A DNA stretch of 64,000 bases. It comes from a virus. The stretch lies in IMG/VR virus record IMGVR_UViG_3300028008_000005, positions 50,690 through 114,689 of that record; one strand, written 5' to 3'. The translations under genes and the position numbers were made by a program. Of the stretch, positions 1 to 6,601 are shown piece by piece; within the stretch, counting starts at the first letter, position 1, and each line of letters opens with the position of its first letter. The notes beneath the pieces are model-generated. The model was not told where the DNA came from, did no database searches, and worked only from the letters and a program-made list of their open reading frames with translations.

Positions 1-9
1 TTACTTACA

Positions 10-1287
10 ATGATTACATTTTTTCTTGTTGGCTTTGTTGCTGGCGGAGTTAATGGTCAAACATATACAGAAGAAGTAGCAAGCATTATTAACGAAAACT
101 GCGTGGTCTGTCACAGAGCAGGCGGCATTGGACCTATGAGCTTTGAAACATATGAGCAAGTAAGACCATGGGCACCACTTATCCAAATGAGAGTGGCTAA
201 CCGTGAAATGCCTCCCTATGCATACGATCATGGAATTGGTATTCAAGACTTGCAAGGTGACTGGCGACTATCACAGGATGACATAGACACTGTTGTTGCG
301 TGGGTCAATGAAGGATCTCAATACGGCAATCCAGACACAGTATTACAGTCAGTTGACCTAGGCGATCCAGAAGCATGGAGCTTCGAAGGAGACTTTGGAG
401 TACCAGATGCAATCATACCAAGTGTAGCAATCGATATTCCGGCAAACGGTAACGACCTATGGCATAAGCATTTAGTACCTACAGGCCTTACTGAAGATCG
501 CTGCATTAAAGCAGTACAGGTAAAGCCTCGTGGTGATGCAAAAGCAGTAGTGCATCACGCTAACTCCAATGTTGTTATTGACGGAGGTCGTGAAGGTATG
601 CTCACGGAGTATGCTATGGGAAAGTGGGGAGAGATCGTCCCAGAGGGAGTATGCAGGCTACTTCCAGGAAACGCAGAAATCAGATGGGATATTCACATGT
701 TCCCGGGTGGACTTGGAGCAATGGCACCCGGATCAGTTATCAAAGACAACGTGGTAGAGATTGGTCTTTGGTTATATACCGAAGAGGAAAGCCAAGGATT
801 GAAATACAAACAAGATTTGAGTCTGTATCGCCTAGGCAACCAGGACGATATTACGATACCCCCAAATGGTTACTACATGACTCAAGGTTTACACAGTTTT
901 GATCATCCAGTTAGACTAGATAGTTTTCAACCACATGGACACTTGCGTATGAACGCAGCAAGTTTGGAAATATTCTATCCAGAGACAGGACGCACAGAAC
1001 AGATTAGCCAAGTAAGTAATTGGAGTGCAACATGGCATCACAGTCATTTATATGACCCAGATGTAGCACCACTCTTACCAGCAGGCGCAGTGATTGTTCT
1101 GAAGCAATGGTACGATAACACATCAGACAATCCAAATAACCCAGATCCAGATATGTGGGTAATGGGTGGCTCAAGAACAGGCGATGAGATGACGCACGCG
1201 TGGCTTGCTATTACGCATCTAGATGACGAAGGATATAATAGGCTAAAAGATGAAAGAAATGAAAGAGTTGAGCTTGCTAATAGATAA
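10..1287 (+). CDS. Exported cytochrome c / copper type II (PHM/DBM-like) monooxygenase fusion; the start may lie upstream of the window
   Basis: Hydrophobic N-terminus and CVVCH haem-c motif. PHM-type copper ligands occur in the expected order: VVHH, DIHM, PHGH, DEMT. The frame is open back to base 1. Confidence 0.8.
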   Translation: MITFFLVGFVAGGVNGQTYTEEVASIINENCVVCHRAGGIGPMSFETYEQVRPWAPLIQMRVANREMPPYAYDHGIGIQDLQGDWRLSQDDIDTVVAWVNEGSQYGNPDTVLQSVDLGDPEAWSFEGDFGVPDAIIPSVAIDIPANGNDLWHKHLVPTGLTEDRCIKAVQVKPRGDAKAVVHHANSNVVIDGGREGMLTEYAMGKWGEIVPEGVCRLLPGNAEIRWDIHMFPGGLGAMAPGSVIKDNVVEIGLWLYTEEESQGLKYKQDLSLYRLGNQDDITIPPNGYYMTQGLHSFDHPVRLDSFQPHGHLRMNAASLEIFYPETGRTEQISQVSNWSATWHHSHLYDPDVAPLLPAGAVIVLKQWYDNTSDNPNNPDPDMWVMGGSRTGDEMTHAWLAITHLDDEGYNRLKDERNERVELANR

Positions 1288-1408
1288 TCGCAATAGGTTA
1301 GATATAGATAGGGATTGGGAAGAATACCAAGAACTAACTGAAGAGATCCAACTTTTACAAAATGATTTAGTAACACTATCAATTATGGGAGAAGATTTAA
1401 ATGAATAA
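1250..1408 (+). CDS. Possible 52-aa acidic helical protein ([52 protein letters not shown])
   Basis: Translated by hand. It fills the gap between the two monooxygenases and overlaps both. No family recognised. Confidence 0.35.
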   Translation: MKEMKELSLLIDNRNRLDIDRDWEEYQELTEEIQLLQNDLVTLSIMGEDLNE

Positions 1409-2645
1409 AATAAACGCTGCGGCAGGAACATTAGGTGTTCTATTGCTAATGCTTGGACTTAGAGCAGAAGCGCATGACGATGTAAAGATCGACTACGCAG
1501 AGAACGTAGCCCCTATCTTTGTAGAACAATGTCAAAGCTGCCACCGTGAAGGTGGTATTGCACCGTGGGCAATGAGTGACTTTAGAATGTTGCAAGCATT
1601 CGCCCCTGCAATCCGTGAAGCAGTTACAACATTAGAAATGCCACCCGGGCAGATTGATCGCAAATATGCAAAGGATATTATCAATCATCGCACACTCAGT
1701 CATACAGAAATGGAGACTATTGTACAGTGGATTGATGCAGGCGCTCCTGTCGAAGGTGACAGAGATCCGCTAACAGAAACTGTATACTCAACATCAGAGT
1801 GGGTACACGGTGAGCCTGATATGATTGTCTATGTACCAGCACAAGAAATTCCTGCTGGTCCTTCTGCGATTCCATATCGTTATGTTGGTGTAGACTTAGG
1901 ACTAACTGAAGACAAATGGCTTCGTGGTTCAGAGTTTTTGCCTTCAGAGCCTACAGTAATGCATCACATGCTAAACTCAGTAAGTGTACCGGGAGAGCGT
2001 AATGGCAACATCTTAGGCACACAAGGTGGCGGACAAGAAGAAATGAACTACGCTAGTGTGAGTGCATATGTACCAGGAGGCGATCCAGAATTTTATGACG
2101 AGAACACTGGTGGTTTGTTAAGAGCAGGTTCAACAGTAAACTTACAGTTACACTACACACCAGACGGCAGAGCAAGAACTGACGAAGCAAGAATTGGTTT
2201 GTACTTTCACGATGAAGGTGTAGTACCAGAAGAGAGAATGGCAGGCGACTGTGCTTGTATCTTCCCTAACAACTGGACAACTATCCCTGCATTTGATCCT
2301 AACTTTGTACAAACAGCAGAAGTAGTTCTAAAGCAAGATGTAATGCTGCACACATTCTTACCACACATGCACTTCCGTGGCAAGAGTATGAAAGCAACTG
2401 CATTCTATCCAGACGGCACTGTAGAAGAACTAATTGATGTACCAAGATATGAATATGCTTGGCAACTATCATACACGTGGAGAGAGCCTAAGTTCTTACC
2501 TGTAGGTACAAGACTGTTTGTAGAGGGAGCATTTGACAACTCAGCAGAGAATAAAATGAATCCCGATCCTAGCAGAGACGTACCGTGGGGTCAGATGAGC
2601 GAAGATGAAATGTTCTTTGGAGCATTTACTTGGAAAAACCTATAA
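1401..2645 (+). CDS. Second exported cytochrome c / copper type II monooxygenase (paralogue)
   Basis: Signal peptide ending AEA, CQSCH motif, and ligand motifs MHHM, QLHY, PHMHFRG, EDEMF. GGAG RBS upstream. Confidence 0.82.
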
Positions 2646-2655
2646 GGGGACTAAT

Positions 2656-2727
2656 ATGTGGACTAAACCAGCTTATGAAAATATAAGACTTGGATTTGAA
2701 ATCACTATGTATTTTAGTGTTAGATAA
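2656..2727 (+). CDS. pqqA: PQQ precursor peptide PqqA ([23 protein letters not shown])
   Basis: Translated by hand: 23 aa with the MWTKP...R.GFE.TMY PqqA signature including ExxxY. AAGGGGA RBS just upstream. Confidence 0.9.
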
Positions 2728-2756
2728 TCTATAACTTGTCAAACTAGGAAAAATAA

Positions 2757-3086
2757 ATGTCAGAAGCAGAAATAAAAAAATCTGGTCATCATCCTGCCGA
2801 TACAAATGGTGATGGTAAAGTAAGCCCTAAAGAACAAGATATGTACATGGAATTTAGGCGTAAAGAGCTTGAAGACCAAGATGCAATGCGGGATGCACAA
2901 AGGAAGATGGCATGGTTTGCTTTAGGTGGTATGCTTCTTTATCCTTTTGCAGTTGTAGTCGCATCCATTGCAGGATTAGACCAAGCTCAGGCAACTCTCG
3001 GTGATATGGCACCTACATATTTTGTTGCTGTTGCTGGTATTGTTGCTGCCTTTTTTGGGGCTCAGGCATTTGCTAAGAAACCATAA
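2757..3086 (+). CDS. Small membrane protein with an EF-hand loop and two TM helices (holin-like topology)
   Basis: Canonical 12-residue loop DTNGDGKVSPKE, two hydrophobic segments and a basic C-terminus. Confidence 0.6.
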   Translation: MSEAEIKKSGHHPADTNGDGKVSPKEQDMYMEFRRKELEDQDAMRDAQRKMAWFALGGMLLYPFAVVVASIAGLDQAQATLGDMAPTYFVAVAGIVAAFFGAQAFAKKP

Positions 3087-3090
3087 TAAG

Positions 3091-3131
3091 ATTAATACGG
3101 GTAGATTTGCCTTGAATCTACCCGTATTAAT
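3091..3131. terminator. Perfect 17-bp inverted repeat; likely bidirectional terminator
   Basis: ATTAATACGGGTAGATT-tgccttg-AATCTACCCGTATTAAT between convergent genes. Confidence 0.75.
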
Positions 3132-3161
3132 AATTAACGGGTGATTTTCTTATGTTTTTCC

Positions 3162-4237: not shown

Positions 4238-4502
4238 TTGAAAATTTCCTTTGAATCCATTTAAATGTGTAGTAAATTGTAAGACCGTAACAAGCCAATA
4301 CGCTCATAGGCATCGCTATGTATATTAGCTCCCACGGGGATAAGAATAATATTTCCCATGTAAAGTTTGCTACTGCTTCAGCATCGCCTATAGGATGTTT
4401 AGGTATAAAGGCTTCTGCATCGTCAAATTCAACGTAGTTATGGAACTCTATCCATTCGTTATTTGTAAAACATATTTCAAATTCTTCTGGACACTCTGTC
4501 AT
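4230..4502 (-). CDS. Small membrane protein
   Basis: 90 aa with a C-terminal TM segment; coupled to its neighbours; GGAG RBS. Confidence 0.6.
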   Translation of the reverse strand: MTECPEEFEICFTNNEWIEFHNYVEFDDAEAFIPKHPIGDAEAVANFTWEILFLSPWELIYIAMPMSVLACYGLTIYYTFKWIQRKFSNG

Positions 4503-4504
4503 AA

Positions 4505-6601
4505 TTATCTCCCGTATTGTAAGGATATTAATTCTTTGTATTTCTTATCTGTGCCAATCATTCGCAGCATAGAGTTTCTATCATTCTGTACACTGCTCGT
4601 CGGCATACCTCTGTCAGTGTAAAAGCTAACATCTTGTAGTTGTCCGCTGTATTGTGAAAACGCACTGTTACGACCCATTAAGAATACAGTCAAGCTTTGA
4701 TCTGTGAATCCGCCAGAGTCTTGCATGTTACTAGCAAACTCGTCCAAGTTTTGTTCTAGTTGTTCGTCAGACATATTTTCAGCTTGTGCGTTTGCTTTGT
4801 CTGTAGTCTCCTGTTCTTCTTGACTTGGTGGCGCAACATTAAAACGTGAGAAATCAGGTGGTGCTGTTGAAGTTAGAGCATCGCTTATCGATCCACCACT
4901 AGAGAAGGCTTGATTAGTTTGACTACCAAAGTTCTGGTCTGAAGTTGTTACACCAGATGACGATAAAGTGTCTGTGAAATCTTGGGTATCAGACTGTTGA
5001 TTAGTTGCCTCAATTGATAGTGCTGAAAATATTATAGAAGGCCCTCCAAAGCTAAAATCAAGGTTAGTCTCTTCGCCGAAAGATTGTTTCCCGCCGTTAA
5101 AAGTTTGACCGCTATCTCCCATGCCCATACTACCTGAGTTTTGTTCTATTAAGTCTTCAACAATGCTTTCTTCGGTTATTTCACTAAAGCTTTGAATTTG
5201 GGATTGTTGCTGTGCCTGTGTTATGCTGTTTAAAGCGAACTTGTTGCTTGATGTTATCGATGACTGAACTAAGTTTGCACTAGATTGTATCTGGTTCATA
5301 GCAATGGCCACAGCGTCTACTCTTCTAGCTGCGTTTTGCCTTGTTGCTACTGGACCAGATCGACTATTAACAGGTGCTGCTTTGACTACAGCGACTTCAA
5401 TCATGTCTTCTCTTATGAGTAAATTGTCATCAGAATTACTCATAACTTCGGGTTGCGTGTAATTTTCTTCTTTTTTTACATCTACAATTTGCTTTTCTAT
5501 TTCAGGTGTAAATTCTTCATATGTTTCCTCTATCTCTGGTACAACTACCTCATCGAACTCTTGCTCCATCATGTCTAGTTCTGGTCCACCACCAAAGTCA
5601 TCCAGAGAAGAACCACCATTAAAAAGATCAGGTGTTGATCCATCAAATGTATCAGCTACCATTCCGTTAAAGTCATCCAGAGAAGAACCACCAAAAAACT
5701 CCTCTTGAGTTTGACCAGCTGTCAATGTATCTTGATATGTATCAAAAGGATCCGGGCCGAAATTAAGTGAAGGATCATCAACAAAATCAAATACATTATC
5801 ACCAAAGACTTCAGTACCATCAAAGGATCCTACAGGATCAAAAATGCCACACGACTGTGGATTGTCGTCACATTCATCTACAGCTACGTAATTAGATAGA
5901 GTGGAGTTTACAGTATCTAATACTGAATCAACACCGCTCGCATTCTCATACGCACCTGTTACTGTATTAAACTGCATTGTAAATGGAATATTAGAAACCC
6001 ATTTATTCTTTTTATATTCAAGAACATTATATTGACCAATACTCAAATCACCTGCTGTACCTACCGTAGTGTTGTGCGACTTTATCTTTATTTTATCGTA
6101 TCTAAATTTAATATCACCTGTGTCAAAAATCTTTACTTCAAAGCTATTTAATCTATTAACATTATAATATTCTGGTATATCGTACCAGCCAAACGTGGCA
6201 GTATTGCTTGTTGTTTTATACCAAGGGTTAGGATTATATTCTACTGCTAAGTCTGTCCAAAGACCGAAAATAGAATAACTCAATGCATCCGCTTTGCTAC
6301 CGTTTCTCCATTGCTCGGTATTGTACATTTCAGCTTCTAAGTCGTATCCACTACAACAAAAAGTATGTCCCTTAACACCATTATCTTGGAAGTTCACTAC
6401 ACCGTTGTAAGTGACCCATGCTTTGTCGTATGTGTTATCATAGAAAGGAAAGTCAAACCCTAGATCAACTTGAGCTTGTTGGAGGTCATCGATATCAAGC
6501 TTTACTGCTGAGTTATCATTTCTTAAGTCTACAAGCACAGACGGATATTGCCCATAAGCAATTCCGCTCAATAGCATTAAGGCTATAAATAACTTTTTCA
6601 T
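4505..6601 (-). CDS. Secreted protein with a NIDO/nidogen-like N-terminal domain and acidic low-complexity linker
   Basis: Signal peptide; motifs LGFDFPFY..Y....V..NG.V.F, LWTDL and F.V.IF..G.I.FRY typical of NIDO-like domains. Confidence 0.6.
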   Translation of the reverse strand: MKKLFIALMLLSGIAYGQYPSVLVDLRNDNSAVKLDIDDLQQAQVDLGFDFPFYDNTYDKAWVTYNGVVNFQDNGVKGHTFCCSGYDLEAEMYNTEQWRNGSKADALSYSIFGLWTDLAVEYNPNPWYKTTSNTATFGWYDIPEYYNVNRLNSFEVKIFDTGDIKFRYDKIKIKSHNTTVGTAGDLSIGQYNVLEYKKNKWVSNIPFTMQFNTVTGAYENASGVDSVLDTVNSTLSNYVAVDECDDNPQSCGIFDPVGSFDGTEVFGDNVFDFVDDPSLNFGPDPFDTYQDTLTAGQTQEEFFGGSSLDDFNGMVADTFDGSTPDLFNGGSSLDDFGGGPELDMMEQEFDEVVVPEIEETYEEFTPEIEKQIVDVKKEENYTQPEVMSNSDDNLLIREDMIEVAVVKAAPVNSRSGPVATRQNAARRVDAVAIAMNQIQSSANLVQSSITSSNKFALNSITQAQQQSQIQSFSEITEESIVEDLIEQNSGSMGMGDSGQTFNGGKQSFGEETNLDFSFGGPSIIFSALSIEATNQQSDTQDFTDTLSSSGVTTSDQNFGSQTNQAFSSGGSISDALTSTAPPDFSRFNVAPPSQEEQETTDKANAQAENMSDEQLEQNLDEFASNMQDSGGFTDQSLTVFLMGRNSAFSQYSGQLQDVSFYTDRGMPTSSVQNDRNSMLRMIGTDKKYKELISLQYGR

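Follow-up and report, generated by a model that had tools for sequence, protein, structure and literature searches.

Do two genes for exported haem-copper proteins and the small precursor-peptide gene that follows them act as one redox module in a marine phage, or are they separate functions that share an island? The question arises at the start of a 64,000-nucleotide stretch of DNA, hereafter the window, that comprises bases 50690-114689 of the 114.7-kb IMG/VR virus record IMGVR_UViG_3300028008_000005 (CheckV completeness 64%). A first-pass annotation, made from the sequence alone, had described two paralogous genes here, which we call A and B, each encoding a signal peptide, a CxxCH motif and six copper-ligand positions of the peptidylglycine alpha-hydroxylating monooxygenase (PHM) type, followed by a gene of the pyrroloquinoline quinone (PQQ) precursor type, pqqA. 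It had proposed that extra PQQ feeds electrons through the haem of A and B to their copper centres. We favor a different reading, to which we give a probability of roughly 60%, in which the locus is an auxiliary-metabolic-gene island with two host-derived periplasmic-redox functions that are not obligatorily coupled. This reading builds on the architecture, fold, ligand conservation, viral context, purifying selection and distribution of the genes.

The three genes and their motifs are placed in the window as follows.

1..1287, plus strand: gene A, with its true start 9 nt upstream of the window (L002:15682); 431 amino acids (aa) with a signal peptide, a c-type haem domain and a PHM/DBH-fold two-copper core (DBH, dopamine beta-hydroxylase)
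100-114, plus strand: CxxCH of gene A, C37/C40/H41 in the 431-aa numbering
208-216, plus strand: MPP of gene A, residues 73-75
553-558 and 694-696, plus strand: CuH ligands of gene A by motif position, H188/H189 and H235
934-936, 940-942 and 1189-1191, plus strand: CuM ligands of gene A by motif position, H315, H317 and M400 (in DEM)
1401..2645, plus strand: gene B, encoding 414 aa; paralogous to A and of identical architecture
1530-1544, plus strand: CxxCH of gene B, C44/C47/H48
1638-1646, plus strand: MPP of gene B, residues 80-82
1962-1967 and 2151-2153, plus strand: CuH ligands of gene B by motif position, H188/H189 and H251
2364-2366, 2370-2372 and 2610-2612, plus strand: CuM ligands of gene B by motif position, H322, H324 and M404
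2656..2727, plus strand: pqqA, 23 codons, with E15 at 2698-2700, Y19 at 2710-2712 and an AAGGGG ribosome-binding site

The signal peptide, CxxCH and all six copper-ligand positions (HH, H, HxH and M) were thus recovered in both A and B, together with MPP and a DEM motif that is present in both proteins. A and B are 27% identical across ~396 residues (E=1e-34) and are therefore paralogues. The pqqA ATG lies exactly 10 nt downstream of the B stop codon on the same strand, as had been described. The coordinates of gene A needed correction: the gene itself stands, but the ATG at window position 10 that had been taken as its start encodes the internal Met7. Its frame leaves the window at the 5' end, and an AAGGAGG ribosome-binding site precedes the true start.

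Copper monooxygenases of the PHM/DBH type are textbook animal enzymes that need ascorbate. An alignment profile of the A family matches human DBH (4ZEL) at E=8.9e-5, and its HH, H and HxH fall on the DBH ligands, the HxH of A (H315/H317) aligning to HTH of DBH. AlphaFold2 models were obtained with a predicted local distance difference test score (pLDDT) of 82.7 for A and 77.2 for B, and the top Foldseek matches of both models are PHM and DBH at a probability of 1.0. When the A model was superposed with VIA-align, Z scores of 18.9 (DBH) and 18.5 (PHM) were obtained, with a root-mean-square deviation of ~3 Å over 250-265 residues, against a Z of 8.7 for the best unrelated fold. Residues 135-414 of the A model align to PHM 55-328, with M400 falling on PHM M314 (PHM ligand numbering as in PMC12164859). 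Across 37 diverse homologues the HH pair and the third His of CuH are invariant, H188/H189/H251 of B are likewise invariant in the B alignment, and M400 of A is ≥90% conserved in the 37-sequence alignment. On these data the CuH and CuM ligand positions of the PHM/DBH type are kept in both proteins, and the two-copper core that had been predicted is borne out by structure prediction and Foldseek for both models.

Searches with family models gave a different result. The hidden Markov models Cu2_monooxygen (PF01082) and Cu2_monoox_C (PF03712), which the first-pass annotation had named as a check, returned no match to A or B at E<=1, and relatives of A and B reached only 15.9-19.6 bits against the Cu2_monoox models (cut-off 23). 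Membership of A and B in the PHM/DBH kind holds at the superfamily or fold level only. With the B alignment profile, DBH and PHM were not reached by sequence and only weak haem-motif matches were returned; the predicted fold of B is assigned from its structural match and its homology to A.

The N-terminal part of each protein is modelled as three helices, and the extreme N-termini of both models have pLDDT values <50. Signal peptides were judged by eye, with the predicted cleavage sites ...VAGGVNG/Q in A and ...LRAEA/HDD in B. The haem Cys, Cys and His and the MPP motif, whose Met is the putative second haem ligand, are invariant in the 37-sequence alignment (24-82% identity), in agreement with the earlier reading of an exported c-type haem domain. 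A scored 19.8 bits against Cytochrome_CBB3 (cut-off 27) and 17.4 bits against Cytochrom_C (cut-off 21.3), and B scored lower; the cytochrome matches looked for in both proteins are therefore present, but under the cut-off. Relatives of A and B score up to 37 bits on cytochrome c Pfam models.

Are these genes truly part of a phage genome? Downstream of the cassette, baseplate hub, wedge and tail genes of the window match T4-type PHROGs. For the baseplate wedge protein, identity to the counterparts in OM43 phage Melnitz and pelagimyophage HTVC008M is 38%. Two-piece permuted tmRNAs are a known trait of this phage group, with 17 of 47 Melnitz-like contigs carrying one (PMC9004378). Upstream lie NT5C, a pyrimidine-dimer-glycosylase-like gene, PhoH, a PD-(D/E)XK nuclease, a ClpP-like gene, a kinase, a phage lysozyme and DUF1353. 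The record is a marine T4-like phage related to Melnitz and the pelagimyophages. Since the cassette occupies 50.7-53.4 kb of the 114.7-kb record, internal and with phage genes on either side, it is not a chimeric end. The slightly raised G+C content of window positions 1-2000 (0.439 versus ~0.39) is what a chimeric assembly or contaminating host DNA at the end of a contig might produce, but the identical A protein is present on 23 contigs, another viral contig (L176) carries B, pqqA and the downstream gene D at 100% identity plus the 3' end of A, and the arrangement is common to dozens of independent viral contigs. We consider the chance of such an artifact to be negligible, and the possibility raised at the outset that this end is a host fragment is ruled out by this synteny.

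A is encoded on at least 267 IMG/VR viral contigs, and no tblastn match to it was found in 50,697 GenBank phage records. In a maximum-likelihood tree viral A forms one lineage beside a five-tip cellular clade (L006-L010), inside a 136-tip cellular radiation, with some node supports weak (0.5-0.97). Because the cellular radiation is the broader one we take the direction of transfer to have been from cell to virus, with the partly weak node supports in mind, and A and B are probably host-derived. Both genes are under strong purifying selection: in viral copies the median ratio of nonsynonymous to synonymous substitution rates (dN/dS) comes to 0.088 (A) and 0.083 (B). Cellular homologues, viral genes on both sides and purifying selection are expected of auxiliary metabolic genes, and A and B show all three.

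The cassette also occurs in two much larger contigs, as A followed by pqqA in PBPT01000016.1 (335 kb; L005) and as A-B-pqqA in IMGVR_UViG_3300024228_000554 (340 kb; L094), both flanked by phage clamp-loader, tail-sheath and PHROG-only genes. The presence of tail-sheath and clamp-loader genes in these 335-340 kb contigs shows that jumbo phages carry the cassette too. The 335-kb contig is binned as 'Ca. Neomarinimicrobiota MAG RS350' and looks like a mis-binned jumbo phage. No description of A/B-type monooxygenases in phages was found in the literature searched. They are new as phage auxiliary genes and constitute a haem-c-fused bacterial and phage variant of the PHM/DBH kind. The first-pass annotation knew of no described phage system like this one; that holds for the monooxygenases, but viral pqqA has already been published (PMC7678222).

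The third gene is a genuine pqqA, as had been thought, and its product passes both family models, with 41.2 bits against PF08042 (cut-off 21.1, E=1.5e-10) and 49.1 bits against TIGR02107 (cut-off 20, E=3.4e-13). The PqqA cross-link residues E15 and Y19 (ExxxY) are present and are invariant in 80 viral copies. Neither pqqC, pqqD and pqqE nor a PQQ dehydrogenase (PQQ_2) was found in the 114.7-kb record (64% complete), and the further pqq genes sought upstream did not materialize, pqqA being the only one in the record. The phage pqqA is an orphan that depends on host genes.

Is pqqA then coupled to A and B? We scored gene order in the best 80 viral loci, counting a locus only where the contig has room for the next gene. 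B follows A in 41 of 61 loci, and A stands without B in the remaining 20. pqqA follows B in 13 of 42 loci and is absent from the other 29. In cellular genomes, no pqqA is present within 8 kb of the A array at any of the 77 loci. Three single-contig Pseudohongiella chromosomes with A arrays contain no pqqC, and in the two Pseudomonadales genomes that hold both the phage pqqA subtype and B-type genes, the two are 51 kb apart or on different contigs.

These counts bear directly on the proposal that phage pqqA raises PQQ, that host PQQ dehydrogenases reduce the A and B haems, and that the copper centres then hydroxylate a periplasmic substrate. Such a module would be favored by the shared strand, the 10-nt gap and the lack of a terminator ahead of window position 3091, by the occurrence of pqqA directly after B in 13 independent viral loci and directly after A in one jumbo-phage contig, by the two Pseudomonadales genomes that contain both gene types, and by a fungal precedent in which a PQQ pyranose dehydrogenase powers a copper monooxygenase through a cytochrome domain (PMC5960967). 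It is opposed by the majority of viral B loci that lack pqqA, by the A-only loci, by the cellular arrays and pqqC-free chromosomes, by the separation of the two gene types where they share a genome, by the frequency of pqqA in viral contigs without A or B, and by the lack of a PQQ dehydrogenase in the record. We regard the single module as unlikely. If true, it would be a viral counterpart, in the bacterial periplasm, of the fungal chain from PQQ dehydrogenase to lytic polysaccharide monooxygenase (LPMO), and the natural electron donor of a very large family of self-sufficient haem-copper monooxygenases would then be known. The comparative evidence says instead that pqqA is an independent add-on and not an obligate partner of A and B. 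The survey of viral contigs suggested by the first-pass annotation thus found linkage in a minority of loci, with pqqA widespread on its own elsewhere.

The extent of that wider occurrence was seen with a degenerate DNA pattern for pqqA, which matches at least 120 viral contigs. In a set of 80 of these loci, 30 have the marine subtype of pqqA and ~9-10 of these adjoin A or B, a figure that includes two loci with a 66%-identical A ~2 kb off and one truncated locus. Of the pqqA-only contigs scanned for the preceding gene, two gave a family match, and in both it is the major capsid gene that pqqA directly follows:

L190, minus strand: podophage-like viral contig with a Phage_capsid_2 gene at 4504-5436 and pqqA at ~4240-4296
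L246, plus strand: podophage-like viral contig with a Phage_capsid_3 gene at 1924-3069 and pqqA at 3157

This position suggests very high late expression of pqqA. In addition, tblastn revealed PqqA-like open reading frames in the cultured Methylophilales (OM43/LD28) phages Venkman, Melnitz, MEP301/401/402 and P19250A, at E values of 0.08-0.8 with the 23-residue query. These frames are unannotated or are overlapped by a 'hypothetical protein' on the opposite strand. The Melnitz copy (MZ577097.1, ~76134-76205; L295:3995-4066), the sole one translated, encodes MKWTKP...FGFEVTMY, which is unmistakably a PqqA; in the Melnitz paper PQQ figures only as a medium supplement (PMC9004378). Viral pqqA from Lake Baikal methylotroph viruses has been read as a PQQ booster (PMC7678222). 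Cellular copies of the phage pqqA subtype, found in Pseudomonadales, lie in normal pqq operons, always ~2.6 kb from pqqC. Collectively, pqqA is a common and mostly unannotated phage gene that occurs in unrelated contexts.

For cofactor loading, the electron path, the monooxygenase chemistry, the class of substrate and the benefit to the phage, we infer the following scheme. A and B would be exported by Sec, and haem would be attached at CxxCH by the host cytochrome c maturation system, with His/Met ligation via MPP. Two coppers would be bound at the PHM-type sites, CuH (HH plus H) and CuM (HxH plus M). The fused haem may take the place of ascorbate as the one-electron donor to CuH, fed by the host's periplasmic cytochrome c pool, and CuM would activate O2 and hydroxylate a C-H bond of what is probably a small-molecule substrate. 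Independently of this, pqqA would give extra precursor peptide, which is used one-for-one, to the host PqqB-E pathway, and the added PQQ would serve host quinoprotein dehydrogenases in parallel with A and B.

The cellular relatives of A and B give some indication of the chemistry. The family is very large: a profile search over 1.84 billion representatives reached 4,212 clusters at a threshold of E<=1e-30, and 21,195 when this was relaxed to E<=1e-3. Many family members are ~580-690 aa long, begin with an AhpC/TSA-redoxin domain, match Cu2_monoox_C weakly and are named only 'cytochrome c' or 'redoxin' in their source annotations; no characterized member was found in the literature searched. 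Cellular relatives of A that are 66-82% identical come mostly from Pseudohongiellaceae, OM182 and other Pseudomonadales, both from metagenome-assembled genomes (MAGs) and from chromosomes. Among cellular proteins, those nearest to B share 48-53% identity with it, are ~590 aa long, keep all ligands and have an N-terminal AhpC-TSA domain that phage B lacks.

We collected 421 genomic stretches with A relatives, mostly of the Pseudohongiellaceae/OM182 type. The cellular loci hold tandem arrays of two to five A paralogues, and most also have a divergently transcribed B-like gene without HxH. Recurrent neighbors of the arrays are MFS and TonB transporters, a serine hydrolase, a cupin, a GMC oxidoreductase, NHL-repeat proteins and STAND-type regulators; these loci resemble catabolic islands that work in the periplasm and whose enzymes have diversified in substrate. 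In 57 of the 77 cellular loci the A arrays are immediately preceded by a gene for a secreted 312-aa protein (L025:5143-6081, P0241) that belongs to no known family and may be a monooxygenase partner, a chaperone or a substrate-binding protein; it had no match in the phage record, although an empty answer from that search proves little. In one Pseudohongiellaceae-like genome an AbgT-family transporter gene (L166:2722-4113, minus strand) is convergent to a B-type gene, a hint at the substrate from a single case. The B-like proteins without HxH (L006:4695-5834, minus strand, and those of L007, L064, L066 and L060) form a divergent subfamily in which CxxCH, HH, H and Met are kept and HxH is replaced, the region reading R-A-R-M-S/N-Y-R. 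This pattern suggests a one-copper or non-catalytic relative.

The persistence of a cellular subfamily that has lost the HxH of CuM is one reason to ask whether A and B hydroxylate anything. They might instead be electron sinks or oxidases, burning reduced cytochrome c with O2 for example, or might handle copper or reactive oxygen. The fusion of many relatives to AhpC/TSA peroxiredoxin-type domains hints at peroxide chemistry in this sense, and no substrate-binding residues could be identified in A or B. However, all six ligands are kept, under strong purifying selection, in phage A and B and in their closest cellular relatives, and the diverged tandem paralogues beside transporters, TonB receptors and hydrolases look like substrate diversification. 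We therefore consider a non-hydroxylase role improbable.

A second alternative is that A and B act on a peptide, as the first-pass annotation had already considered. They would hydroxylate it as PHM does, in an amidation-type reaction or during maturation of a ribosomal peptide, perhaps even PqqA. Structurally, A and B match PHM best, and a short peptide gene adjoins them. Moreover, in 17 cellular loci (L049:10394-11524 and 16 others) the A arrays have an NHL-repeat gene at a distance of 1-2 kb, and the NHL beta-propeller is the fold of the PAL lyase, the partner of PHM in animals. We tried this neighbor as a PAL-like lyase and rejected it, since generic NHL proteins match it better: it is closer to TRIM-type NHL repeats (E=6e-24) than to PAL (E=5e-14) and is a lead only. 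Several other observations speak against a peptide substrate. Motif mapping places Q in A and L in B at the position of PHM R240, two residues before the first His of HxH; R240 binds the carboxylate of the PHM substrate (PMC12164859), and its replacement makes classical peptidylglycine chemistry less likely. The compartments differ as well: A and B are exported, while PqqA, which lacks a signal peptide, is matured by PqqE/D in the cytoplasm. Most A/B loci, moreover, have no pqqA. The peptide alternative is weakened by the R240 position in particular, and we hold it to be very unlikely.

The reading we prefer, of two host-derived redox functions that share an island, has evidence against it as well. 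The C-terminal ~300 residues of A and B are not placed by Pfam or NCBIfam, and the Pfam cytochrome matches of both proteins are sub-threshold. For the whole A/B family, haem, copper, use of O2 and substrate are predictions. The four MAGs with the closest cellular A have no pqqC, which leaves the use of both gene types by one host a supposition. Finally, the 10-nt gap and the terminator-free junction between B and pqqA would also fit functional coupling.

Transcription of the cassette may take in one further gene, up to a probable terminator.

2757..3086, plus strand: gene D, for a small EF-hand-like putative membrane protein (109 aa) that has a DxNxDG loop and is hydrophobic in its C-terminal half; it ends the run of genes on this strand
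3091..3131, no strand: inverted repeat with a 17-bp stem from a terminator-like scan, between convergent plus- and minus-strand gene blocks

A ribosome-binding site precedes each of A, B, pqqA and D, and the terminator-like scan found no site between them. The hairpin at 3091-3131 is a probable bidirectional terminator that closes an A-B-pqqA-D transcription unit. Matches to sigma-70-like promoters are no commoner than in shuffled sequence, and no TATAAATA late-promoter motif was seen in the three short stretches inspected. Co-transcription of the four genes is likely, and it is equally normal for unrelated accessory genes in phage islands. Gene D scores E=0.0055 against EF-hand_5, under the cut-off, and is conserved, with several related viral loci having a 61-100% identical copy after B or pqqA; whether it belongs to the cassette is uncertain. 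A 1064-aa relative of A and B (P0244) has true EF-hand motifs fused to two haem-copper units, which may be a calcium link to gene D or a coincidence.

How do these proteins compare with known systems? In their two-domain beta-sandwich core (Z 18-19), and in CuH and CuM ligands that are in register, A and B resemble PHM, DBH and tyramine beta-monooxygenase. They differ in being bacterial or phage proteins that are only 11-16% identical to these enzymes and are missed by the Pfam models, in having a fused N-terminal c-type haem domain and no DOMON or PAL domain, and in lacking the R240 anchor of PHM; their reductant is presumably cytochrome c and not ascorbate. Also comparable are bacterial fusions of AhpC/TSA (redoxin), cytochrome c and Cu2_monoox_C-like domains, which are homologous to A and B through the whole haem and copper core. 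The phage proteins and the cellular A-type proteins are without the thioredoxin-fold domain of those fusions. A two-copper PHM/DBH core fused to c-type haem thus occurs in marine phages of at least two size classes. The reductant and substrate of A and B would define a new way of powering PHM/DBH-type chemistry, and the proteins could expose an unrecognized periplasmic oxidation step in marine organic-matter turnover that is boosted by viruses.

A parallel for the proposed electron path is found among the LPMOs. c-Type cytochromes reduce these bacterial copper monooxygenases in Cellvibrio (PMC8981238), and in both this and the fungal chain (PMC5960967) a cytochrome domain feeds an extracytoplasmic copper monooxygenase, as we propose for A and B, with the fungal chain starting at a PQQ enzyme. 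The likeness is an analogy only: LPMOs are mononuclear histidine-brace enzymes of unrelated fold, and in neither system is the cytochrome part of the monooxygenase, being a separate protein or belonging to the dehydrogenase. For pqqA, the commonness of the gene in phages, cultured OM43 and LD28 phages among them, means that viral reprogramming of host metabolism through PQQ supply can be put to the test. The closest known case is that of the Lake Baikal viruses (PMC7678222), whose pqqA is likewise an orphan but is linked to a viral methanol dehydrogenase, whereas the pqqA described here adjoins haem-copper monooxygenases and belongs to a marine peptide subtype with cellular counterparts in Pseudomonadales.

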